A stretch of DNA of 64,000 bases from an uncultured Chloroflexia bacterium (GCA_963712745.1 CAVQJC010000017.1:320001-384000); one strand, 5' to 3'. Positions 46,305 through 60,343 are shown, counted from the stretch's first letter. The notes: generated by a model from the letters alone, not told the origin. Numbers and translations are program-made.

Positions 46305-47417
46305 TAGTGGTCCGCGTCATTAGTTCGTTGACAGGATGTGCGATGATGGGCGCATGCAGTCATCCGGGTTCTCCATCACCGATGAGGATCGCTTGACCCT
46401 GACGAGGTGGACGAAGGCCACCACGGTGTCCGCGGGCCATGCCGAGCGCGCGGCGATCGTGCTCGCCTGTGCCGACGGCGCGGGCACGTCGGCGACGGCG
46501 CGCCGGCTCGGGATCTCGCGTCCGACGGTCATCAAGTGGCGGGAGCGGTTCGCCGCGCAGGGCATCGCGGGGCTCGATGACGAGCCGCGCTCCGGCCGGC
46601 CCAAGGTCGTCGACGACGCGGCCATCATCGCGGCCACCCTCGATCCGCCACCCGAGCGGCTGGGCGTGACGCACTGGTCGACGCGCCTGTTGGCCCACGA
46701 GATCGGGGTCGGCGATGCCACGGTCGCGAGAGCCTGGCGCCGCTTCCACGTGCAGCCGTGGCGACAGGGCACGTTCAAGTTCTCGACCGACCCCGAGCTC
46801 GAGGCCAAGGTCCGCGACGTGGTCGGGCTCTACCTCGAGCCGCCCGAGCAGGCGATCGTGCTCTGCGTCGACGAGAAGAGCCAGCTCCAGGCCCTCGACC
46901 GGACCCAGCCGATGCTGCCGCTGCGGCCCGGCCAGGTCGAGCGCCGGACGCACGACTACAAGCGGAACGGGATCACGAACCTGTTCGCCGCGCTCGAGGT
47001 GGCCACGGGCAAGGTCACCGATCGCTGCTACGACCGGCACGGCAAGGCCGAGTTCCTCGACTTCCTCAAGCGCGTGGCCAAGGCCTACCCCCGACGGGAG
47101 CTGCACGTGATCCTCGATAACTACCACACCCACAAGCACGACGATGTCGACCGCTGGCTGGCCAAGCACCCCCGGGTGATGCTCCACTTCACCCCGACCT
47201 CGGGCTCGTGGCTCAACCTCGTCGAGGTCTTCTTCGGCATCATCAGCCGTCAGGCGATCCGCCGCGGCTCGTTCGCCAGCGTCCCGGAGCTCGTGGCCGC
47301 CATCCGGGCCTTCATCGATGGCTGGAACGAGCGCTGCCACCCGTTCACCTGGACGAAGACCGCTGACCAGATCCTGCCCCGCGCGACCCGTCAAACGACT
47401 TCAGACGCGGGACACTA
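46305..47417 (+). mobile_element. IS630 family insertion sequence
   Basis: imperfect ~29-bp terminal IRs (CTAGTGGTCCGCGTC.. / ..GACGCGGGACACTAG), TA duplicated at 46305-6 and 47416-7 within CTAG. Confidence 0.92.
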
Positions 47418-47418
47418 G
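46336..47418 (+). CDS. IS630 transposase
   Basis: HTH, PRSGRP, THWSTR, DDE: CVDEKSQ, ILDNY, SWLNLVE. Confidence 0.95.
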   Translation: MCDDGRMQSSGFSITDEDRLTLTRWTKATTVSAGHAERAAIVLACADGAGTSATARRLGISRPTVIKWRERFAAQGIAGLDDEPRSGRPKVVDDAAIIAATLDPPPERLGVTHWSTRLLAHEIGVGDATVARAWRRFHVQPWRQGTFKFSTDPELEAKVRDVVGLYLEPPEQAIVLCVDEKSQLQALDRTQPMLPLRPGQVERRTHDYKRNGITNLFAALEVATGKVTDRCYDRHGKAEFLDFLKRVAKAYPRRELHVILDNYHTHKHDDVDRWLAKHPRVMLHFTPTSGSWLNLVEVFFGIISRQAIRRGSFASVPELVAAIRAFIDGWNERCHPFTWTKTADQILPRATRQTTSDAGH

Positions 47419-47614
47419 CGCATGGGTAGAGCACGCCGAGTCGCGACTACGGCCAACGGTAGGCCTGCCCCTTTCCACGCTGCAACGCCGCCCTCCGCCA
47501 AGTAGCCCGGTCGCGCCGTCTCGGACCGAAGCCGACGTCAGCGGTATCGTTGGCTGGCCAATCGAACCAGTCTGAGGTCTCCATGTCCGAGCTCTCGCCA
47601 GTGACCGTCTCTCT

Positions 47615-48352
47615 ATGCGGATGAATCGTCTCGTCCGCCGTGCAACCGTGATGGTGGCACTGGTCGCCATCACGCTGACCGCCGCCTCCGGCAGCGCCAT
47701 CGCCGACCCGCCGACCGCACCATCATCCCCAACGTCCGACGACATGAACGATGCGGCCCCGATGCCGACTTCGATGGCGACACCGACGTCCGAACCGGCG
47801 GAGACACCGGGCCAGGAGTCGACCCAGCCCGTCGCGACCGAACCGCGGGATTGCCGGCGACTCACGGACTTCACCGCCGACGACACGGGCACGTGGTTCA
47901 TCGTGAACGACGGCGTCATGGGGGGCCGTTCCGATGGCGGTGGGCTCATCGCTGAGTCGCTGCTGCAATTCGAAGGCAGCGTCGTAACTGCCGGGGGTGG
48001 ATTCACGAGTGCCAGGCTTCGCTTGGAGGGAGACGAACTGGTCGACACCTCCCGCATCGAGATGCGCGTGCGCCCCGATGTACGCACGTACGGCCTCACC
48101 CTGGAGGACGCCGCCGAATTCCGTGGGCGCCTGGTGTCGCACCGAGCCGATCTCGACATCGGCCCTGTCGACAGCGATGGCTGGGCGATCGCCACGGTGG
48201 AGTACGACCAGCTCGTGCCGTCGGTGTTCGGACTGCTCGTCGACGCGCCGCCGTTCGACCCCGCTGCAGCCCGTGAGCTCGGGATAATCATCGCCGATGG
48301 AATCGACGGCGACTTCGCCCTCGACATCGACTGGATCGACGCCTGCTCCTGA
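47615..48352 (+). CDS. secreted CIA30-family (carbohydrate-binding-like) protein
   Basis: signal peptide, Pro/Thr linker, WFIVNDGVMGGRS, GGGFTSAR. Confidence 0.85.
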   Translation: MRMNRLVRRATVMVALVAITLTAASGSAIADPPTAPSSPTSDDMNDAAPMPTSMATPTSEPAETPGQESTQPVATEPRDCRRLTDFTADDTGTWFIVNDGVMGGRSDGGGLIAESLLQFEGSVVTAGGGFTSARLRLEGDELVDTSRIEMRVRPDVRTYGLTLEDAAEFRGRLVSHRADLDIGPVDSDGWAIATVEYDQLVPSVFGLLVDAPPFDPAAARELGIIIADGIDGDFALDIDWIDACS

Positions 48353-48410
48353 GTGGCGTCGGCCCCGATGTTCCCGAGTGGCGCTACTGTTCTGATTGAG
48401 TCCGAGACAC

Positions 48411-48517
48411 GGGCCGGTAGCTCAGCAGTCAGAGCAGGGGACTTTTAAGCATTCCGAGCTGAGCGCTGTGCTTCCCTGAGTGGAGGAGCGAGCGAAGCGG
48501 GCACAGTTATCGGCTGT
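48411..48517 (+). repeat. 5' half of tRNA-Lys (38 nt) plus conserved 69-nt hairpin; att-like site copy 1
   Basis: 37/38 match to 54074-54111; following 69 nt match 51087-51155 at 55/69. Confidence 0.9.
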
Positions 48518-48576
48518 TGGCGAGCTCGTTCTAGCAGCAGATCAGGTCCACCCCAGAGCACCCCGGGGGCGTCCAG

Positions 48577-48766
48577 CTACTCCTTGTCGGGGTCGATCCC
48601 ACGGGCCCGGAGCATCTCGCGGGGGTCGAGCGTGATGCCCGGCCACTTCTGCGTGAGGCGGCGCTTGGCGTCGGGCGGCACGACCAGGTCCGGATCGATC
48701 TCCAGGTCTCGGAGCCACTGCTCCTGCTGGTCCCTCGATCGCTCGCCGGACGAGCTCGCTTGTCAT
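48577..48766 (-). pseudogene. chimeric remnant: ECF sigma-like start (MTSELVRRAIEG) joined out of frame to a C-terminal fragment of another gene
   Basis: start resembles MDRDLVLRAQAGD/DSDLVVQAQGGD; GGAAC-N16-CGTC upstream; GC3-rich frame DQQEQWLRDLE..DPDKE*. Confidence 0.45.
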
Positions 48767-48857
48767 GCGGGGCCGTTCCCTTGACGCGACGGACTTCTCC
48801 GCGTTCCTCCGTCTTGCGTTGCCCACGGGTAGGAGTAATCCATCGGGTGCAAGAAGG

Positions 48858-48890
48858 GACCCGGGCCACCTCGCTGGGCAGGCCCGGGTC
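48858..48890 (-). terminator. intrinsic terminator-like hairpin
   Basis: GACCCGGGCC-N13-GGCCCGGGTC followed by CCTTCTT on minus strand, after the 48915 stop. Confidence 0.55.
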
Positions 48891-48914
48891 TCGCTGCTTG
48901 TCGCCTGGGTGTGG

Positions 48915-50372
48915 TCAGGCGGCGTCGCAGGTGGTGTTCTCGCCCATCGACGGCGTAGCGTCGTCGTGGATCTTGATGCTGGTCATGCCGCCGCAGGCGC
49001 TGTTGCCGTCGACGCTGGGGCTGGTGTTGGCGCCGATGTCGATGCCCATACCGTCGGCCTCGATCTCGTTGTTCGTGATCTCCGGGGAGCCGCCGCCGAA
49101 GAGGACGATGCCGTTCCAGGTATCGCGGATGGTGTTGTCGATGACCTCGGCATCGCTCCAGGAGACCGAGATGGCGATCATCTCGACAGAGATATCGTTG
49201 CCGCTGACGAGTGGCTGTTCAGTCTCCACGTCCGGGCCACCCTCAGCTGACACGCCATCGCCAGCGCCGGCGCTGACTTGGATGCCGTTGCGCGAGCCGC
49301 TGATGGTGTTGTCGCGGATGACAGGGGCGCCGGCCCTATCGATCTGGATCGCAGACGAGATGGCATAGCCCGTGGCGCCAGTGATGGTGTTGCCCTCGAT
49401 GAGGGCATTGGTCGGAACATCCCCCATGACGCCGCCCACGCTGATGCCGCCTCCGCCGGCCAGGGTGTTGTCTCGGATGACCGTGCTGTCGCCCATGCTG
49501 CCGTAGATGCTCGCGCCGTCGCGCAGATCGTTCCTCGCGATGAGCGGCTCAGCGCTATCCGCTGTCTCGATGCTGCCGCCGTTCACGAGGCTATCAGTGA
49601 GCGTGGCCGTCGAGCCCGACCCGATGAGCAGTCCGAAGTCGGCTCCGTCCAAGACCAGGTCGCTCAGCGTGGGCGACCCACCGTCGACGACGATCGCGCC
49701 CGTGTGACCGGTGACCTCACCCTCGGGGCCGGCGAAGGTCAGCCCGCGGACCTCGGCCTGCGTGTCATCCAACAGGAGTGAGTACGCTACCGTGAACTGC
49801 TGGACAGCCCCGCTCTCGGCGAAGTCGAACGTAGGGCCGCCTTCGGGAATGCTGATGACGACCTTCTCGCGGGGACCGTCACCCGCGACGGTGATGTCCT
49901 TGTCGATGACGATGGCCTCGACGTAGCTGCCAGGCTGCACGAGCACGGTGTCACCCGCAGCGGCCGCAGCCACGGCCTCGGCGATGGTGCTGAAGTCACC
50001 CGAGCCATCGGCGGTCACGACGTGGGTCGAGAGCGCGGCCGCTGGCGGCTGAGTGGGGATGGCGTCGATGACGTTCACCGCCACGGCGGTGATGGCGATG
50101 GCCGCGGTGATGGCCGTGGCGCTGTACATGAGTCGGGACCTCCGGTTCATATGGGGTGGATAGTCGTGATCGGCGGTGCGACGTCTCGCACCTCGGCCAC
50201 GGTCGAACCACCGCCCCAGGAACCGGGCCCTGGTCTGGGGGGTCGTCGGGAGCCGAGACAGGGTCTCGTGCATGATGTGGTCGGTATCGGGGGCCGGCAT
50301 GGCCTCATCACGAGCCGCCAGCCAGCGTCGGACCTGCTCGGCTTCGTGCTCGTTCATCCGTGGGTCGCTCAT
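48915..50372 (-). CDS. anti-sigma-like membrane protein with extracellular right-handed beta-helix (pectin lyase/NosD-like) domain
   Basis: coupled to ECF gene; short N-domain, one TM, DGSGDFSTIAEAV..VQPGSYVE, repeated IxxNxI. Confidence 0.75.
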   Translation of the reverse strand: MSDPRMNEHEAEQVRRWLAARDEAMPAPDTDHIMHETLSRLPTTPQTRARFLGRWFDRGRGARRRTADHDYPPHMNRRSRLMYSATAITAAIAITAVAVNVIDAIPTQPPAAALSTHVVTADGSGDFSTIAEAVAAAAAGDTVLVQPGSYVEAIVIDKDITVAGDGPREKVVISIPEGGPTFDFAESGAVQQFTVAYSLLLDDTQAEVRGLTFAGPEGEVTGHTGAIVVDGGSPTLSDLVLDGADFGLLIGSGSTATLTDSLVNGGSIETADSAEPLIARNDLRDGASIYGSMGDSTVIRDNTLAGGGGISVGGVMGDVPTNALIEGNTITGATGYAISSAIQIDRAGAPVIRDNTISGSRNGIQVSAGAGDGVSAEGGPDVETEQPLVSGNDISVEMIAISVSWSDAEVIDNTIRDTWNGIVLFGGGSPEITNNEIEADGMGIDIGANTSPSVDGNSACGGMTSIKIHDDATPSMGENTTCDAA

Positions 50373-50929
50373 GTGCTCGCCTCCGGGCCGCGGCCGAGCG
50401 AGACCGACGGATCGGCACCGGCCATGGCATCGCGGAGTTTGCGCATCGCGTGGTAGAGCCGGGAACGCACGGTTCCCTCGGGGATGTCGAGCGCCCCTGC
50501 GATCTCCGGCAGGGTCATGCCCAGGTAGTGGTGCATCACGACCGCGGCTCGGTGGTCCGTCGAGAGTCCCCGGAAGACGCGCTCAATCTCATCTCGATCG
50601 TGGACTTCCGCATACCCGCCGTGCGTCGCCGGTTCGCGAGTCAGGTCGGTGATGCCGCTCGCTCGCCACCGCTTGGCTCGTCGCGCCTCCGAGTAGCAGG
50701 AGTTGACGAGGACTCGGTAGCTCCAGGCGCCGAATGTGTCGGGCTCGCGCAGCTTGGGCAGCTCCCGCCAGATGCTGAGCAGGGCCTGCTGCGTAGCGTC
50801 TTCCGCCAGGTGTGCGTCGCCGAGGACGCCGCGAGCCACCGCCAGCATTCGGTCGACGACCAATTCGGCCAGCATGGAGAAAGCCCCCTGGTCGCCGGCT
50901 TGCGCTCTGAGCACGAGATCGCGGTCCAT
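50369..50929 (-). CDS. ECF RNA polymerase sigma factor
   Basis: GDQGAF, AEDATQ, FGAWSYR, EIAGALDIPEGTVRSRL. Confidence 0.93.
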   Translation of the reverse strand: MDRDLVLRAQAGDQGAFSMLAELVVDRMLAVARGVLGDAHLAEDATQQALLSIWRELPKLREPDTFGAWSYRVLVNSCYSEARRAKRWRASGITDLTREPATHGGYAEVHDRDEIERVFRGLSTDHRAAVVMHHYLGMTLPEIAGALDIPEGTVRSRLYHAMRKLRDAMAGADPSVSLGRGPEAST

Positions 50930-51048
50930 GCCTCTCCCGATGGTGCACCCGCCTGTCGAGCGCACTTACCCATACAGACGCAGGCGGCCGTGGAACCGAC
51001 TCAATGGTCACGCCAGGACGTGTGTGGGCTAGGCTTGGGGCTTCCACG

Positions 51049-51155
51049 GGGCCGGTAGCTCAGCGGTCAGAGCAGGGGACTTTTTAGCATTCCGGGCTCA
51101 ACGCTGCAGCCCCCTGCGTGGAGGGGCGAGCGTACGGGGCACAGTTATCGTCTGT
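51049..51155 (+). repeat. 5' half of tRNA-Lys plus conserved hairpin; att-like site copy 2
   Basis: 37/38 match to tRNA 5' half; diverges at the same anticodon-loop position as copy 1. Confidence 0.9.
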
Positions 51156-51322
51156 AGATGAGCACGAGTCACGCGCTCCACAGCGAGGCTCGGCTCTGGC
51201 TGGCGTCAAGGCCCGGCCTCAGCGAGAAATCGAGGGAACAGTTCGGCCTTCCGTTGCCCCATAAGATGCGTACAGGCCATCATCGATACCGGCACCGATG
51301 AGCTGACGGCTACAGACGCCGG

Positions 51323-51898
51323 ATGGGGGGTTCGGTGGATTCCGACCTCGTGGTCCAGGCACAGGGCGGCGACCACGCTGCGTTCGAGCGGCTCGCGCTC
51401 GTGGTCAGCGATCGCGTCCATGGCATCGCGTTCAACATCCTGCGCGACTCCGACCAGGCCGAAGACGCCACGCAGCAGACACTCCTGGCCGTCTGGCGGG
51501 ACCTCCCACAGCTACGCGATCCGGCCCGTTTCGAAGCCTGGGTCTACCGGATCGCTGTCCGTGCCTGCCACGCCGAAGCCCGCCGCACCCGGCGCTGGCT
51601 GTCGCTCGTCTCGCCCTGGTCTGGCGGAGGCCCCACGGTCTCTGACGCCGACCTCGATGCGGTCGCCGACCGGGACCAGTTCGACCGAGCCTTCCGTCGC
51701 CTCTCGGTGGACCAGCGCACGGTCATCGTGCTGCACCACTACCTCGGGCTGACGATCGAGCAGGTCGCCGAAACGGTCGGGGTCTCGGATGGCACGGTCA
51801 AATCCCGACTCAGCCGAGCCTGCGCGAGGCTCCGGACGGCCCTGGTGGCCGATGCGACCGACACCGGTGAGACCACACGCATGGGGCTGATCCGATGA
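51323..51898 (+). CDS. ECF RNA polymerase sigma factor
   Basis: GDHAAF, AEDATQ, FEAWVYRI, VAETVGVSDGTVKSRL. Confidence 0.93.
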   Translation: MGGSVDSDLVVQAQGGDHAAFERLALVVSDRVHGIAFNILRDSDQAEDATQQTLLAVWRDLPQLRDPARFEAWVYRIAVRACHAEARRTRRWLSLVSPWSGGGPTVSDADLDAVADRDQFDRAFRRLSVDQRTVIVLHHYLGLTIEQVAETVGVSDGTVKSRLSRACARLRTALVADATDTGETTRMGLIR

Positions 51899-53529
51899 GT
51901 GCCGAGCGCGACCTCAACGACATCCTCGAAGCGCGTCTGCGCGACGTCCCACCACTCCGTCCGACAGTCCTCAGCGACGTCTTCGATCAGACCCGGATGA
52001 TGCCGCAGCGCCGACATCGGTGGCCGCTCCATCTCCTCCAAGGTCGCACCGAGCGCCTCACGGATGTATCGGCTACGGATGCGGTTCCTGCTGCAGTTCC
52101 AGATACGGATGGGCGACAGCCCGTAAGGGGGTCCACGATGTTCTCCGCACTCAAGTTCATCGCCGCTGGCGTCATCGTGGCGCTGTTCGGCGGCTTCCTG
52201 CTCGCAGGCCTTCTGACGGTGCCGAGCGACGACGAGGCCCCTCCGGCGGCGGTGACCGAGTCACCCTCGCCTACGACGACCGAGGAGTTGCTCTCGGGCA
52301 TGGTCACGGAGGAAGTCGAGCCGGGGGTGTTCCGGCTCCTCGACGATGGTGCAGGGCACCCCATGGGAGCGGAGGACGTGACCAACTACGCCACACCCTA
52401 CGTCGGCCCTGATGGAGCCGTCTGGGTCCGCGCCGGGGTGAGTGACATGGACGGCGACACCGTGATGTGGCGACTCGGCGTGCCGGGCCGCCACCAGCAG
52501 TCACCGGAGAGAGGCTTCTCCGACCCGTCCGACTTCGCCACGGCCCCTGATGGAACGCTGTGGGTCGCTGGCTACGCCTACCTCTCCTCCTACGATGGCG
52601 ACTCGTGGACCGAGCATCGGGTCGCGAAGGACCCGTCCAGGGAGTGGCCGCCGAATGCCACGGCGGTCGAGGTCTTGCCCGACGGGACCGTCTGGGCGGC
52701 GTGGGAAGACCGCCTCGGGCGACTCGACGCCGAAGGCTGGCACTACCACCACCCCGCCATGGAGGAGGACGAACGGCTATCGGACCTCCGCGTCCTGCCC
52801 GATGGGTCCATCCTCGCCTTCATGTGGCACGGCCGCATGCTCCGCTTCGACGGAGCCGCGTGGCAGGAGGTCCCGATGCCGGACGTCGGTGCGGCGACCC
52901 GCGTCAGCGGCATCCGCATCGGCTCTGATGGCACCCTCTGGGTGCACTTCATCTCACGTTCGACGGCCCCCGTGCGCGGGAGCGAACCGCGGACGGATTG
53001 GTGGGGCAGCGACGAGGTCCCACAGGACCACCTGGCCCGCTTCGACGGCAAAGCGTGGACGACCTACTCGGCCACCGACGGCCTGCCTCGACTCACCCAT
53101 TCGTCCAGACCTGAGCCGGAATGGGACGTGCATCCCGATGGTTCGGTGTGGGTCCTCGCCGACCCGGAGCAGACCACGGTGTCCGACCCTGGTTCACTCC
53201 TGTGGACGCTGATGTCCTTCGATGGCAAGACATGGACCGAGTGGCCTGATGGGATCGAGTTGCTCGATGTCGGAAGCGACAAGGTCGAGTTGCTCGACAT
53301 CGGTCCTGATGGGACCGTCTGGATGGGCAAGCCCGGTCCAGACCACGAGGAGCGCCTCCATCTCGCATCGCTCGACGGCACCACCTGGCGGCAGTACCCA
53401 CGACTCCTAGTCACAGGTGGAGACCCAGACTGGGATAGCCTCGAGGTCGCCCCGGACGGCAGCGTATGGGTGAAGGCCGACGATGACCGCGGCCTCTACG
53501 TCATCACCCCCGAGGCCGTGGCGGAGTAG
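51895..53529 (+). CDS. anti-sigma-like membrane protein with extracellular beta-propeller
   Basis: ATGA overlap with ECF; TM FIAAGVIVALFGGFLLAGLL; repeated PDGTxW and FDGxxW. Confidence 0.78.
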   Translation: MSAERDLNDILEARLRDVPPLRPTVLSDVFDQTRMMPQRRHRWPLHLLQGRTERLTDVSATDAVPAAVPDTDGRQPVRGSTMFSALKFIAAGVIVALFGGFLLAGLLTVPSDDEAPPAAVTESPSPTTTEELLSGMVTEEVEPGVFRLLDDGAGHPMGAEDVTNYATPYVGPDGAVWVRAGVSDMDGDTVMWRLGVPGRHQQSPERGFSDPSDFATAPDGTLWVAGYAYLSSYDGDSWTEHRVAKDPSREWPPNATAVEVLPDGTVWAAWEDRLGRLDAEGWHYHHPAMEEDERLSDLRVLPDGSILAFMWHGRMLRFDGAAWQEVPMPDVGAATRVSGIRIGSDGTLWVHFISRSTAPVRGSEPRTDWWGSDEVPQDHLARFDGKAWTTYSATDGLPRLTHSSRPEPEWDVHPDGSVWVLADPEQTTVSDPGSLLWTLMSFDGKTWTEWPDGIELLDVGSDKVELLDIGPDGTVWMGKPGPDHEERLHLASLDGTTWRQYPRLLVTGGDPDWDSLEVAPDGSVWVKADDDRGLYVITPEAVAE

Positions 53530-53641
53530 GCTCGCGGCAGACGATCCGGCAGCCCCATGCACATCGGTAGCTACGTGGGCTGAACTGCAGCAAGCGCAGC
53601 CATATCCGCCTAAGAGGGGACCATAGCTGGCCTCTGTTGCT

Positions 53642-53755
53642 CCGTAGAGCCGACAAGTGGACTGCTATCAGCGCACGTCCGGAGGGCTTCCTGAGCGTAG
53701 CTGGAGCCCGTGACGAGGGTCCAGACAGCCGGTGGCTGGTCGATGTGTTCGCGTC
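53642..53755 (+). repeat. ~110-bp conserved element, copy A
   Basis: roughly 80% identical by eye to the reverse complement of 54275-54384. Confidence 0.85.
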
Positions 53756-53942
53756 GAAGGTCGCGGGCATTGCTGGGCATGACCGTCGAGAGGACGTATC
53801 GGGTCAAGCCCTCCACGGCCTTGGCGTACGTCCTGACCGTCTGGTCGGCCATGTTGGCGGCCAGCAGGCTCCGTTCGAAGGATCCGAGATCGACGAGGAG
53901 GGGCGGGGTAGCATGTGCTGCGGTGAGAGCTTCGGCTGGCAT
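53745..53942 (-). pseudogene. tyrosine integrase N-terminal (SAM-like) remnant
   Basis: SFERSLLAANMADQTVRTYAKAV..DLRREHI, similarity lost at the 110-bp element. Confidence 0.65.
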
Positions 53943-54073
53943 CGAACGGACCTTTCGCTGGGAGGTGGGCGCCTCCCACGATCACTGTCTGTTCGACCGT
54001 TGCAGCCAGAGATCTTATCGGTGCATGGATCAGCTATCGGCTCTATCGGAGCACGAAACTGGCCAGAAACCTC

Positions 54074-54149
54074 GGGCCGGTAGCTCAGCGGTCAGAGCAG
54101 GGGACTTTTAATCCTCGTGTCCTGGGTTCGAATCCCAGCCGGCTCACCA
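54074..54149 (+). tRNA. tRNA-Lys (TTT)
   Basis: GGGCCGG/CCGGCTC acceptor, TAGCTCAG, GGGGA-CTTTTAA-TCCTC anticodon arm, GGTTCGAATCC, encoded CCA. Confidence 0.98.
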
Positions 54150-54215
54150 CTTCTTTCGGGTATCCACGCTCCGATGCGAGGTAATCCCTCGCTCGTGCGG
54201 CCTTCCTGGAACGGC

Positions 54216-54237
54216 TGACAGCCACGTTGACAGCAAC
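54216..54237. repeat. tandem 10-bp repeats, probable integrase arm-binding sites
   Basis: TGACAGCCAC-GT-TGACAGCAAC 67 bp downstream of the tRNA. Confidence 0.55.
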
Positions 54238-54274
54238 GTCAGACGCACTCAGTCGTATGCAGAGCACGTCTGTG

Positions 54275-54384
54275 GACGCGATATCGGACAGCCACCGGCC
54301 GTCTGGACCCTGATTGCGGGCTTCAGCAACGCTCAGCCAGCCTTCCGGACGTGCGCCGGATGCTGTCACTTTTCGGCTCTACGG
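54275..54384 (-). repeat. ~110-bp conserved element, copy B (inverted)
   Basis: reads CCGTAGAGCCGA..GCGCACGTCCGGA..AGGGTCCAGAC..GCCGGTGGCTG on minus strand as in copy A. Confidence 0.85.
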
Positions 54385-54448: not shown

Positions 54449-56038
54449 TCACCGCTCGGCAAGGCCCGAGTCCGAAGCCGGGAGATCGTCGAACGTGATG
54501 ATCCAGTGGTCACGCTGCCACCCGTTGGACTCCTCGTCCTCGTAGACCGAGTGCGCGATGGTGTTGCCGCTGATCGGAGCGATCCCCGCACCGCCCGCCC
54601 CAAAGGTGTCGGTCTTCAGGCCCAGCGGGACGTTGACCACGGTCGGTTCCGCGGAGTCGGCCGAGTGGAAGACCATGCTGCCACCGGTGAGCTCCACCCA
54701 GGTCGACCCCAACGGGGCCACGAAGAAGGCCTGTGGCCGCTGCGGGACCTGTTGCCATTCGACGCCATCGGATGACACCCACTCCTCCGACTCCTGCCTC
54801 GCCTCGTCGAAGCTCCAGGTCACCACCCCGTTCGGCTTCCGGACGCCCATCTCCGGGTCTGCTGGCAGCAGTCCCTGGACTCCCGCCGGCTCACCGGGTT
54901 CGTCTCCGAGGACTTCACCGAGCGTCCACTCCCCGCCATCTGGCGACGTCCATGTCTGGATCATCCCGTCGGCTCTCATCGCGAGCGCTGTGAAGCCGCC
55001 ATCGGACCCAGACACGACGAAGGCTTGAGTGGACGTCCCGGAGTCGGGCTCGGGCAGCTCGACGGACCCGACTCGACCATCCCGTACGAGTCCCATCTGC
55101 TGTACGGCCGGGGGATAGCCGTCGCCCACGGCCCAGCGCTCGACGAAATCGATGCCCACACCCTCGAGCGTTTTGAGCTCGGCGCCCGTGGCAGCGTCGA
55201 CCACGCGAAGGCCAGCATCGGTCTCCTCGAACCGGAGGGTGGCGTGCTCGTCGTCGTACGCACCCAGGACCCGGTAGCTGCCGTCATCGATGCGCTCGAG
55301 CCGGGCGAACTCGCCACGCTGGTCCTCCCCTTCGGGATGGGACGGTAGCCCCAGGAAGCTCGTGGCGTTCGTCACCCCGAACTCAAGCGGCACGACGATG
55401 GCATCCCCGGAGGCCGCGACACCTCCAAGGTCAAGCCGCCAGTCGATGGCCGCGGGTGAGGGCGGCTCCACGCCGGTCAGGTCGACCGCCTCCCACTCGA
55501 GCGCATCGGTCGATCGCCATAATGACGGCAGAGCGAGGCTGCCGGGCTCGTACGTGGAGAAGTCGTGCGCCGTGAGCCAGTACTCGCCGCCGGCCTGGGT
55601 GAGGCTGAGCTCCTCGAAGTCGGCCTCGATGGGTAGTGGCCTGCGCGTCCACTCAAGCAGGTCCGGCGAGAACCACAGGTGCTGGCAGTTGTGTTCCGAC
55701 GGGCACGGTCCGTAGATGTGGCCGGGCCCGTCGAGCGATACATATCCGCCTTGGACCGGGATAGGGCGCAACACGTCGGGAAGCGACTCTGCATCTCCGC
55801 TCAGATGGACCCAACGCGTGGACCCGAGCGGCGTGTCCAGCGTGTGCGACTCGATGTCCTCCGGGATCTCCGCCGGCAGCTCGATCGGCCGGGTGGTCGT
55901 CGACGACGGCGATGCAGACACACCGACCGCCGGTGCCAACTCGTCGTTCGGCTGGGTCGTCATCACTCCTGCCAGCAGGAAGCCGCCGAACAGGGCCACG
56001 ATGGCACCGGCGACGACGAACTTGGTCGCACTGAACAT
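54449..56038 (-). CDS. anti-sigma-like membrane/secreted protein lacking its cytoplasmic N-domain
   Basis: MFSATKFVVAGAIVALFGGFLLAG nearly matches the TM of 51895-53529; WxSxDxxxW (BNR-like) repeats. Confidence 0.7.
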   Translation of the reverse strand: MFSATKFVVAGAIVALFGGFLLAGVMTTQPNDELAPAVGVSASPSSTTTRPIELPAEIPEDIESHTLDTPLGSTRWVHLSGDAESLPDVLRPIPVQGGYVSLDGPGHIYGPCPSEHNCQHLWFSPDLLEWTRRPLPIEADFEELSLTQAGGEYWLTAHDFSTYEPGSLALPSLWRSTDALEWEAVDLTGVEPPSPAAIDWRLDLGGVAASGDAIVVPLEFGVTNATSFLGLPSHPEGEDQRGEFARLERIDDGSYRVLGAYDDEHATLRFEETDAGLRVVDAATGAELKTLEGVGIDFVERWAVGDGYPPAVQQMGLVRDGRVGSVELPEPDSGTSTQAFVVSGSDGGFTALAMRADGMIQTWTSPDGGEWTLGEVLGDEPGEPAGVQGLLPADPEMGVRKPNGVVTWSFDEARQESEEWVSSDGVEWQQVPQRPQAFFVAPLGSTWVELTGGSMVFHSADSAEPTVVNVPLGLKTDTFGAGGAGIAPISGNTIAHSVYEDEESNGWQRDHWIITFDDLPASDSGLAER

Positions 56039-56055
56039 GGACTGGAACCTCCCTT

Positions 56056-56235
56056 GCCAGGCGGTGACGAACGCATCGTGGACGGCATCCCTGGCCTCAC
56101 TGGGGTCGCCCAGGATGGCACTGGCGAGCCGATAGCTGTCCGAGAGCTGGCGCGTGGCGAGCCGCCGGAAGGCGACGGCCTTCTCGTCGGCCCGCACGCC
56201 CTCTGCCGGATGGCCAGTGACTTGATCGTCCAGAG
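56056..56235 (-). pseudogene. truncated ECF sigma factor (region 2 start only)
   Basis: AFRRL..SYRLASAILGDPSEARDAVHDAFVTAW, then abrupt switch to anti-sigma sequence. Confidence 0.75.
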
Positions 56236-56362
56236 CCTGCCTCGTCGTATTGGTGACCGTGCGCGTTGGCACCCTTCGTTCGGCGTCCACAATGACATGA
56301 CGATCGGCGCACCCGAAACATTCATTCAGAGCTGCCCAACGTGGAGTGTTTGGGCGATCGCA

Positions 56363-56592
56363 TGCGGTCTGCTTCTGGCGCTGCTCGAGCACATGCCCGT
56401 ACGTATTCGACGTCAGCACGATCGAGTCGTGCCCGAGGAGGTTCTTCACTTCCTCGAGCGTGAAGCCCTGGGCGAGCAGGAATGTGGCAGCCGAGTGGCG
56501 GAGGTCGTGGAAGCGGCGATGGGGGAGGCCAGCGTTCGGATAGGGCCCGCTGGAAGGCCCGGGTCACCGTCGCCGTATCGAGTGGGTGTGCC
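56363..56592 (-). pseudogene. tyrosine integrase catalytic C-terminal remnant (one +1 frameshift ~56534)
   Basis: RFHDLRHSAATFLLAQG..LLGHDSIVLTSNTYGHV. Confidence 0.88.
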
Positions 56593-56747
56593 TCGGCTCG
56601 TCGTGAAGACGTGCCCTGACCGGCTTCAGCGCGACCCTGCAACGAACCGCCACGAGGATGAGCGGCGTGAGGACGAGCCGCCAGTAGTGCGGGGCCGTCC
56701 AGATCTGTTGGGCTGGGAAGAGCCCCCGCTGCGCGAGAGCAGCAGCG

Positions 56748-59385: not shown

Positions 59386-59559
59386 TCCCTGCCGGCAGGC
59401 GCACGCTCCACGAGCCACCGTCGAGCACCACCGCGAGTCGGGTGATCGTCGACCGGTTGCTGGGCTAGGTGGTCTGACGCCCGATTGGCCGGACTGGACA
59501 CTCAGTTGATGGTGTGCGCCAGCCAGCACAGCGAGCCCCTACCTCGGGTCAGGTCCTCG

Positions 59560-60146
59560 CGGCGTACGAGAGGCCACCTGTCGGGGATGCCTTTCAGTTG
59601 GTGAGCCCCCCTCGCGTCGAAGCCGATGCCCGAGCCGGCCACGAGATCCTTGACCGTCCTGGAGACGAGCACCTCGCCAGGCTGGGCCGTGGCGGCAATG
59701 CGAGCGCCGATGTTGACACCGATGCCCGCGGGCTTGCCGTCCGCGACCTCGAACTCGCCGGTATGCAGACCGGCTCGCACGCCGACGCCGATCTAGTCGA
59801 GGGCCGCGACGATGGCGAGCGCGGCGCGAACCGCCCGTGCCGGCCCATCGAATGAGGCGAAGAAGCCGTCACCCGACGTATCGATCTCCTCACCCGAGTG
59901 TCGCGCCAGGATGCGGCGGACGATCGTGTGGTGACGCTCGACGAGCTCGCGCCACTGTGCATCCCCCAATCGGGCCGCCAGTGCCGTCGACCCCACGATG
60001 TCCGTGAACAGCACCGTCGCCAGGACCCGCTCGCGCTCGACTGACGTACCGAGCCGAGCGATGAACTCCGCCGTAGCAGCTATCGTCGCTTCGTGACACT
60101 CGTCATCGACCCAGGTGTAGAGCCCCCGGAGCGTGGGCAGTCCCAC
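59560..60146 (-). pseudogene. class III adenylate/guanylate cyclase remnant with in-frame TAG at 59793-59795, N-terminally truncated
   Basis: RVLATVLFTDIVGST, GDGFFASFDGPARA, *, RAGLHTGE, VNIGARI, GEVLVS, LKGIP. Confidence 0.85.
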
Positions 60147-60343
60147 GACTTGTGAGCCAGGGATTCGCTCCGCGATGTAGTGGGCCGGAGCAGGCCGGGC
60201 CGGATGGGGCAGCCGCTGAGCTGCCGACTCGGCACCGCGTCCATCCCCATCCCCATCGCCGCCTGCCGCTGCCGCTCCGCGAGCACATGGCCGTAGGCGT
60301 TCGGGGTCAGAAGACCAGAGCTGTGCCCGAGGAGGTTCCTACG

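Follow-up and report, generated by a model that had tools for sequence, protein, structure and literature searches.

We analysed a 64,000-nt stretch of DNA from an uncultured Chloroflexia bacterium (GCA_963712745.1, CAVQJC010000017.1:320001-384000; below, the window, from whose first letter all positions are counted), in which two short gene-carrying units, each headed by a 5' half of tRNA-Lys(UUU), are stacked in front of the intact gene. The only tRNA gene of the window is tRNA-Lys(UUU) at 54074-54149 on the plus strand, as determined by ARAGORN in agreement with Rfam (68.5 bits), and a genome search found it to be the sole copy in the 4.2-Mb assembly. Its first 38 nt occur at 48411, 51049 and 54074, with the full gene at 54074 only, so spaced that the copy starts are 2638 and 3025 nt apart. 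A repeat finder returned these as a 39-nt family with three copies at 48410, 51048 and 54073 (92-100% identity), together with a 118-nt pair, 48411-48528 and 51049-51166, of 83% identity. The partial copies depart from the tRNA where the 7-nt anticodon loop ends, as an initial annotation made from the sequence had reported and as both the repeat finder and the alignment bore out: the junctions read ACTTTTAA followed by GC and ACTTTTTA followed by GC, while in the intact gene ACTTTTAA is followed by TC. Conservation after the break extends for about 69 nt and ends sharply at ...AGTTATCGKCTGT, giving a 107-nt site beyond which nothing is common to the two copies. Searching the whole 4.2-Mb assembly with the 118-nt query returned the second copy (E 4.7e-29), the tRNA gene (E 1.1e-11) and then a next match at E 0.43; the repeat array thus exceeds chance. 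No additional tRNA-Lys 3' half was found within the window, where the single match was the gene itself and none was expected.

Copy 1 of the displaced tRNA-Lys(UUU) 5' half, identified by the repeat finder and BLAST (48411-48448, plus strand; attL of unit 1), carries one change in the D loop, GCAGTC for GCGGTC, and is followed by the 69-nt P' arm of unit 1 (48449-48517, plus strand), delimited by the repeat and by alignment and containing the boxes GCGCTGTG, GAGTGG, GAGCGAA and AGTTATCGGCTGT. Copy 2 (51049-51086, plus strand; attL of unit 2), recognised from the repeats and from relatives, has the loop TTTTTA and precedes the 69-nt P' arm of unit 2 (51087-51155, plus strand), delimited in the same way. 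Each interval holds one extracytoplasmic function (ECF) sigma gene and a gene for a membrane partner, with a 4-nt overlap of the two genes. In unit 1 the ECF sigma factor of 198 aa (50369-50965, minus strand; Pfam Sigma70_r2 9.5e-13, r4_2 4.9e-14), which is 90% identical to its copy in G013, the closest relative examined, is followed by a 485-aa partner with a right-handed beta-helix domain (48915-50372, minus strand; Pfam Beta_helix 6.3e-18), whose start overlaps the stop of the sigma gene. In unit 2 a 191-aa ECF sigma factor (51323-51898, plus strand; r2 8e-14, r4_2 6.3e-16) precedes a 544-aa partner that spans the membrane once and whose outer part is rich in repeats (51895-53529, plus strand), for which Pfam gave a weak Reg_prop match only. 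One sigma and partner pair per interval had been proposed in the initial annotation, and Pfam confirms both sigmas, although the pairs lie on opposite strands; by position only, the partners would be anti-sigma factors, and their N-termini matched no family in Pfam. The two sigmas are 44% identical to each other, and the DNA similarity of the two units is confined to the 107-nt site. Two further open reading frames (ORFs), of 110 and 112 aa, had no Pfam match; the 112-aa frame (48531-48869) has no relatives outside G013 and is probably not a gene.

Subsequently, the tRNA-Lys locus was compared among 41 genomes, consisting of 24 of the same genus, 16 of a sister family and the window genome. 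The tRNA-Lys 5' half was found in 34 of them, and the half together with the arm only in G013, G014 and G005. G013 matches window positions 47787-51084 at 93.2% over 3299 nt, a span that comprises a CIA30-like gene, copy 1, unit 1 and the next 5' half, and then continues into an intact tRNA; it therefore carries unit 1 without unit 2. G005 has a single cassette resembling unit 2, with ECF sigma and partner, and retains window positions 53712-54248 at 78% identity. The same junction is occupied in G014 by a 1.4-kb APH-like unit and in G232 by a 1.6-kb beta-lactamase-fold unit, whereas in G008 and G009 tRNA-Lys is unoccupied and preceded by unrelated sequence without boxes. Units thus vary among relatives and the locus is not invariant. 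Local tandem duplication including part of the tRNA, with no mobile element involved, would account for the similar spacing of the direct repeats, but it leaves unexplained that the units share no DNA outside the 107-nt site, lie on opposite strands with sigmas so divergent, and occur singly in relatives, and that the same arm follows other tRNAs. Since the presence and absence of units among relatives excludes such a duplication and requires site-specific gain or loss, we regard this explanation as refuted and its residual probability as negligible. The serial site-specific insertion in the anticodon loop with rebuilding of the tRNA from the 5' side, as originally proposed, is supported by what these six relatives carry. 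Separately, the unit 1 arm of G013 (L028 8587-8704) is chimeric, its first ~45 nt resembling arm 2 of the window and the remainder being identical to arm 1, which by sequence comparison suggests an exchange between arms. We also observed that in one genome, G284, two contigs, C11 (L046) and C8 (L047), have near-identical tRNA-Lys flanks around different units of 7.0 and 4.5 kb, a difference that may reflect strain variation in the sampled population.

The initial annotation had stated that neither interval contains an intact integrase, which is true, but had overlooked an N-terminal integrase remnant in unit 2. An open frame on the minus strand (53610-53942) begins 132 nt upstream of tRNA-Lys, and, at 38% identity, residues 11-68 of its translation align with residues 33-90 of the full-length integrase described below (E 2.3e-10 in an 8-sequence set); tblastn on the whole genome recovered the same remnant at E 5e-6. 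The protein match thus defines about 68 codons with a SAM-like core-binding domain (53739-53942, minus strand) and stops at about 53740, while the frame continues to 53610 into the 3' flank of the cargo, where the sequence repeats 54283-54367 in inverted orientation. Between the integrase stub and the tRNA lie two B boxes and one C box, and the P arm of unit 2 (54010-54073, plus strand), recognised by box matches directly 5' of the tRNA, contains CTTATCGGTG (54014-54023), GCTATCGGCTCT (54033-54044) and GGAGCACGAA (54049-54058). This P arm probably also holds the tRNA promoter, as its position suggests. Because unit 2 keeps both the stub and the P-arm boxes, it is best described as a cut-down integrase-bearing element, one that would formerly have been autonomous or derived from an autonomous element. 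The cut in the integrase is common to G005, where the alignment continues through it: the module of truncated integrase and P arm is 78% identical in nucleotides between the two genomes and the flanking CIA30 gene 77%, while the adjacent cargo shows 27-32% protein identity. Either an exchange of cargo or a movement of the already integrase-less unit may account for this. On both sides of the tRNA lies one arm of an 85-nt inverted repeat (53660-53744 and 54283-54367, 80% identity), one copy of which is the junction that cuts off the integrase stub. Each arm of the repeat is situated ~80-215 nt beyond the stop of one of two paralogous partner genes, and the repeat is thus a shared 3' flank of that gene family.

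To follow the site beyond this locus, we searched for the arm independently of the tRNA. BLAST with the arm only gave matches in 21 of 301 genomes of the taxonomic family, in 9 of its 49 genera, and an IUPAC pattern of the arm matched 99 stretches in a collection of species-representative genomes. Most of the matching records are titled Candidatus Limnocylindria, Limnocylindrales, Chloroflexota or 'uncultured Chloroflexia', and the remaining titles fit the ~20 chance matches that we estimate for such a pattern. By association, the window organism would belong to the class Limnocylindria. When an arm profile was applied to the first 80 loci, 61 of them were confirmed to contain arms, 92 in total; with nhmmer the profile gave 130 arms in 82 loci of the non-redundant set (14 duplicate loci removed). 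These arms adjoin halves of at least nine tRNA species, with neighbours that include halves of Lys-UUU, Arg-UCG, Arg-CCU, Met, Gly-UCC, Gly-CCC and Thr-CGU as well as reverse-complemented 3' halves; in other genomes the arm follows 5' halves of tRNA-Arg(UCG) and tRNA-Gly(UCC). The crossover is fixed, every junction in the window and at the arms beside other tRNAs falling at the end of the 7-nt anticodon loop. The search for the site suggested in the initial annotation thus found three places in the assembly with the 118-nt query, and with the arm at least three further sites of the family (L056, L057, L058) in the window genome: four arms behind reverse-complemented tRNA-Gly(CCC) 3' halves, reaching the contig end (C20:652590-660466), a tRNA-Arg(UCG) 5' half with its arm ~11 kb from the gene, at a contig start (C20:1-11250), and one weak arm at the start of C11 (C11:57-154). 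A scan of viral contigs with the arm pattern gave one match, which the arm profile rejected, and a phage origin of the arm was accordingly set aside.

Conservation within the arm is restricted to three short boxes, namely A (GCGCTGTRGC), C (GAGCGTGG and GAGCGWA) and B (AGTTATCNNCTST). The same boxes recur directly 5' of the tRNA halves carried by cassettes, in the order A-B-C and then the tRNA, and box B varies with the tRNA type identically on P and P' arms. Boxes on both sides and the matching variation of box B together indicate a composite attP of ~150-190 bp. The initial annotation had instead drawn an analogy to integrons; in the strict form of this analogy, the 107-nt site would be a folded, attC-type single-strand substrate for a resident integrase on a fixed platform. 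Hairpins with a bulged A can indeed form in the two arms of the window (-9.0 and -11.0 kcal/mol), and visual inspection of some Lys-type arms suggests compensatory changes, but single folds of arms gave z of +1.1 and -0.3, and across 115 arms (of 129 unique ones, omitting the 9 weakest and 5 partial) the sequence between the boxes was no more stable than its shuffles, with a mean z of -0.36 and 28% of arms below -1. Furthermore, RNAalifold found compensatory change in 0 of 19 predicted consensus pairs, and an Rfam scan of the window returned the tRNA only and no other family. With no integrase beside the arrays, no conserved arm fold and two-gene operons on either strand in place of promoterless single-ORF cassettes of one orientation, the integron-like interpretation is largely refuted and we consider it very improbable.

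The likely enzyme of the site is a tyrosine recombinase, as had been foreseen. A cognate family of XerC/D-like tyrosine recombinases, represented by a 315-aa protein with Phage_int_SAM_1 and Phage_integrase domains, occurs at the same sites: integrase fragments beside arms, which were all that a custom recombinase profile detected over all loci, led to full-length 'third' integrases of several genomes, each immediately beside a tRNA. A search at E<=1e-25 detected it in 122 of the 301 genomes searched from the taxonomic family (119 of 298 when the unpublished G229, G120 and G176 are excluded), with more than 200 integrases in all, and 0 times in the window genome. An intact copy, which the initial annotation had recommended seeking, is therefore found in relatives and was not found in the window genome, whose assembly is 84.55% complete, so that absence here means 'not found'. 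At 26 of the 30 best integrase loci the integrase N-terminus is separated by 117-180 nt from the start of a tRNA gene that lies on the other strand, and three of the remaining four loci are cut by contig ends. The tRNAs at the 26 loci are Pro (10), Arg (4), Ala, Thr and Val (3 each) and Lys-CUU, Gly and Met (1 each). As the integrase is situated divergently upstream of the tRNA, the elements include the 5' half along with what lies upstream of it. Complete elements, in which an integrase, a P arm and a regenerated tRNA are accompanied by a displaced 5' half with an arm or arm-like sequence, were identified in G019 (9.1 kb), G239 (6.4 kb), G148 (11.7 kb) and on contig C4 of G005 (9.8 kb). One integrase element, at tRNA-Gly(CCC), uses the 3' half instead. 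Integrase remnants also adjoin six arm sites outside the window.

Other recombinases were weighed against this family. That host XerC/XerD build and remodel the arrays with no dedicated integrase, as they do for integrative mobile elements exploiting Xer (IMEX) or pdif modules, draws on the observations that a Xer-like pair is the one type of tyrosine recombinase common to all array-bearing genomes examined, and the sole one in G331, and that the cognate integrase shares the Xer-like architecture. On the other side, a dedicated integrase family is physically tied to the same sites, and inspection of the crossover, the only approach taken, showed no dif-like 11-6-11 site; we consider the host proteins an unlikely source of the arrays, at a low probability. 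A serine recombinase was rejected as the array enzyme, as one small resolvase lies elsewhere in the window genome and none in G331. The window genome also contains, in a very GC-rich segment (C12:5276-8707, L041), a phage-type integrase with an excisionase-like HTH gene, unrelated to the array family, which may be a prophage or a binning contaminant.

Taken together, we consider it likely that two small integrative elements entered the anticodon loop of tRNA-Lys(UUU) in turn, forming the present stack, and that both have since lost their integrase. The attP of such an element, one of a family found across the Chloroflexota class Limnocylindria, would run from the integrase start through the P arm with its short boxes to the tRNA half, and then over the crossover point, where the anticodon loop ends, into the 69-nt P' arm; in this locus the tRNA half would be the 5' half plus the upstream region. 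The recombinase would be the 315-aa XerC/D-like protein, which in intact elements is encoded divergently beside the tRNA. Recombination with the chromosomal tRNA would displace the resident 5' half upstream and fuse it to the incoming P' arm, while the 5' half of the element would join the resident 3' half, so that the gene would stay whole. The present tRNA-Lys would accordingly combine a 5' half from unit 2 with a 3' half from the other side, and copy 2 would have been the working 5' half until unit 2 entered. Since each insertion would land at the gene, the newest unit should adjoin it, which makes unit 2 the newest and unit 1 the older. With ~68 integrase codons left and no intact copy found, the stack is probably immobile now unless integrase is supplied from outside. 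The initial annotation had named eroded remnants of large integrative and conjugative elements or prophages as the contrary outcome; erosion does apply to unit 2, but it would have started from a small element, intact relatives measuring 6-12 kb.

Several observations weigh against this interpretation. Excision joints of the type 48448-51087 or 51086-54112 were not found in short contigs of relatives from four public runs, which gave partial cover, no run containing more than 0.28 of the sampled words; the single back-joint in these contigs, 51127 to 48486, is accounted for by the chimeric arm of the relative. All genomes used are metagenome-assembled, and repeats in them may be collapsed or split. 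In unit 1 a P' arm is present, but a P arm and any trace of integrase were not found, and an autonomous origin of this unit is accordingly a presumption. The cognate integrase has no separate arm-binding domain that might read the boxes, and the P' sides of the integrase elements on contigs C4 and C6 of G005 were unrecognised by the arm profile. A full-length cognate integrase was not found in any of the 82 arm loci, which were mostly examined as 8-kb stretches, and integrase remnants adjoin only about 7 of 130 arm sites. Moreover, G331 carries a 72-kb array (C1:1380034-1454895, L158-L163) of 16 arm sites on one strand that ends at an intact tRNA-Arg(UCG), while the genome has no tyrosine recombinases besides two Xer-like genes separated by 40 kb, and no serine recombinase. 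At 8 of the 17 boundaries of this array a P arm starts at the same box A beside unrelated cargo, a pattern that resembles a defined form without integrase and not random decay.

Over the arrays as a whole, 76 units were delimited from 45 loci, with lengths of 773-12,636 nt and a median of 2526 nt. By the position of PF00589 matches, no tyrosine recombinase was found in ~14 cassettes of 11 array-bearing genomes, and in G331 none was found within 150 kb of the array; in this array we also observed an 'empty' unit, an arm only 106 nt ahead of the next site. Clustering of 979 ORFs from 76 array loci gave adenylate-cyclase/STAND/TPR proteins (30 members in 23 loci), ECF sigmas (17 members in 10 loci) and a recurrent ABC-type family, and no recombinase, and replication-type genes were absent from the 25 cassette proteins scanned. 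The commonest cargo families of the arrays are signalling genes, and the initial view that ECF pairs define the cargo does not extend beyond this locus, as cargo elsewhere is not specifically of that kind.

These features raise a second explanation, a weaker form of the initial proposal, which overlaps with the stack of decayed elements described above: the integrase-less units might be working, non-autonomous gene cassettes (P' arm, one to three genes, A-B-C P arm and tRNA half) and not debris, propagating as such while the Xer-like integrases of a minority of units, or of other cells, excise, exchange and stack them at the anticodon loops of tRNAs. The small median size of the units, the lack of a full-length integrase in the arm loci and the uniform box-A boundary in G331, which recurs in Lys-type units of another genus, would all fit it, as would the truncated-integrase module shared with G005 beside such divergent cargo and the single metagenome-assembled genome with two contigs of the same flanks and different cassettes. 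Weighing on the other side, no circle or empty-site read appeared in the short contigs of the four public runs, homologous recombination between the 107-nt repeats can equally give precise loss, unit 1 without a P arm would not be excisable alone, only four pairs of units are common to different species (88-96% identity), and the remnants indicate that some units once had their own integrase. We therefore entertain this explanation tentatively, as doubtful but deserving of attention, and continue to favour successive insertion of two small integrative elements followed by loss of their integrases.

The class of mechanism is already known from the tDNA islands collected by Islander, from tycheposons and from the ssrA islands of Dehalococcoides. 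Table 1 of the Islander study lists 3919 islands, of which 3760 have a 3' fragment and 159 a 5' fragment, with 2083 anticodon-centred sites, 125 tandems of at least two members and four of at least three (PMC4383910). Duplication of the 3' end is thus the usual form, as the initial annotation had held, and the 5' form is uncommon yet known. As described in the same account, the islands resemble ours in that island sequence restores the split target tRNA gene, a displaced fragment of which marks the opposite border, recombination takes place within the anticodon loop, the integrase is encoded beside the att site and tandem arrays occur (PMC4383910). Of the features of tDNA islands the locus has the intact tRNA with a fragment repeat per unit, the fixed crossover and, among relatives, occupied and empty sites; a cognate integrase next to att is represented in the window by the ~68-codon remnant of unit 2 only, and in relatives by the 26 of 30 loci and the four full elements. 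In contrast, the 5' side is the rule for the integrase family described here (26 of 30 loci) and a 4% minority in the Islander table, and our units are short (median 2.5 kb), mostly without integrase and arranged in arrays of up to 16 sites; by design, the Islander counts include only arrays whose every member has its own integrase (PMC4383910).

In Dehalococcoides, tandem ssrA islands, some members of which have no integration module, are discussed as cis-mobilisable elements (CIMEs) and in terms of accretion, the members without the module being proposed to move together with, or by means of, adjacent islands (PMC3146451). They are likewise tandem islands of Chloroflexota at one small-RNA gene, marked by direct repeats of the target, but they are attributed to a CcrB-like serine recombinase and have a 20-bp repeat of the ssrA 3' end, downstream of the gene (PMC3146451), whereas the present system has a Xer-like tyrosine recombinase and a 38-nt 5' half with a 69-nt arm, upstream of the gene and at many tRNA species. 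Of the two att sides expected of a CIME without recombinase gene, unit 2 has a P' arm and a P arm, but also an integrase stub, and unit 1 has the P' arm only; in G331, 8 of 17 boundaries have complete P arms. For the tycheposons of Prochlorococcus, tRNA-specific tyrosine recombinases are described whose clades track the tRNA targets (bioRxiv 10.1101/2020.12.28.424599). Set against this description, the units here are similar as cargo elements with neighbours parted only by a partial tRNA and with scattered integrase fragments and partial tRNAs, and differ in that the replication and other hallmark genes which tycheposons carry (bioRxiv 10.1101/2020.12.28.424599) were not seen in our units. With integrons the arrays share short cargo units, each with a conserved recombination site, entry at one fixed end and a Xer-like tyrosine recombinase without an arm-binding domain. 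Unlike integrons, they have no platform integrase (intI), no Pc or attI, no folded, palindromic attC, no uniform orientation and no promoterless single-ORF cassettes, and some units carry their own integrase. What is particular here is that the 5' side is the norm for an integrase family, together with the boxed att site, the short units with scarce integrases and the size of some arrays.

Downstream of tRNA-Lys lies a second element family. Decayed cargo at 54449-56449 (minus strand), in which Pfam and protein comparison identify a truncated ECF region 2 that continues in frame into a membrane protein resembling the partners, is outside the 5' stack and belongs to this second, classical family. 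Protein matches revealed the C-terminal remnant of a 344-aa integrase type at 56363-56649 (minus strand) and a further C-terminal remnant of the same type at 60227-60340 (minus strand). The 344-aa integrase is intact in G007, in a 6.4-kb classical element with a 3'-half repeat and other arm motifs (CTGNCAGCC), and G097 has a frameshifted copy. For the different arm motifs and the classical 3'-half architecture it was rejected as the array enzyme; the window contains 7 matches to the CTGNCAGCC motif where 5.2 were expected, which is no enrichment. With one integrase family on each side, the anticodon loop of tRNA-Lys has been used from both sides. The flank contains CTGACAGCC-type motifs at 54213-54223, and fragments of an adenylate-cyclase domain lie at 59502-60146 (minus strand). 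On the other border of the stack, an IS630-family transposase gene with DDE_3 and HTH domains (46336-47418) is situated just 5' of the CIA30-like gene. In G005 a degenerate tRNA-Lys 5' half (L030 12541-12570) stands before this gene and an arm fragment (L030 11650-11686) behind it, and the window retains at 47515-47560 a counterpart of the sequence behind that degenerate half. This CIA30-like gene may itself represent a unit that entered the stack earlier.

Our literature search found no paper tying Limnocylindria to integrases or mobile elements at tRNAs. The variable region analysed here, in a little-studied uncultured class of soil and freshwater, is most likely the product of one integrase family whose elements consistently include the 5' half of the target tRNA together with the sequence upstream of it, and whose attachment site is defined as ~150-190 bp with three recurring boxes. 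This provides an annotation rule for island borders and tRNA fragments in metagenome-assembled genomes of Limnocylindria, a collection of small Xer-like integrases whose natural targets span many different tRNAs, and a case for how closely the accretion of tRNA islands can approach cassette behaviour. Should the integrase-less units prove to be working cassettes, Limnocylindria would possess a tRNA-anchored functional counterpart of integrons, in which the target tRNA is always repaired and signalling modules such as ECF sigma pairs and cyclase-STAND-TPR proteins would be shuffled.

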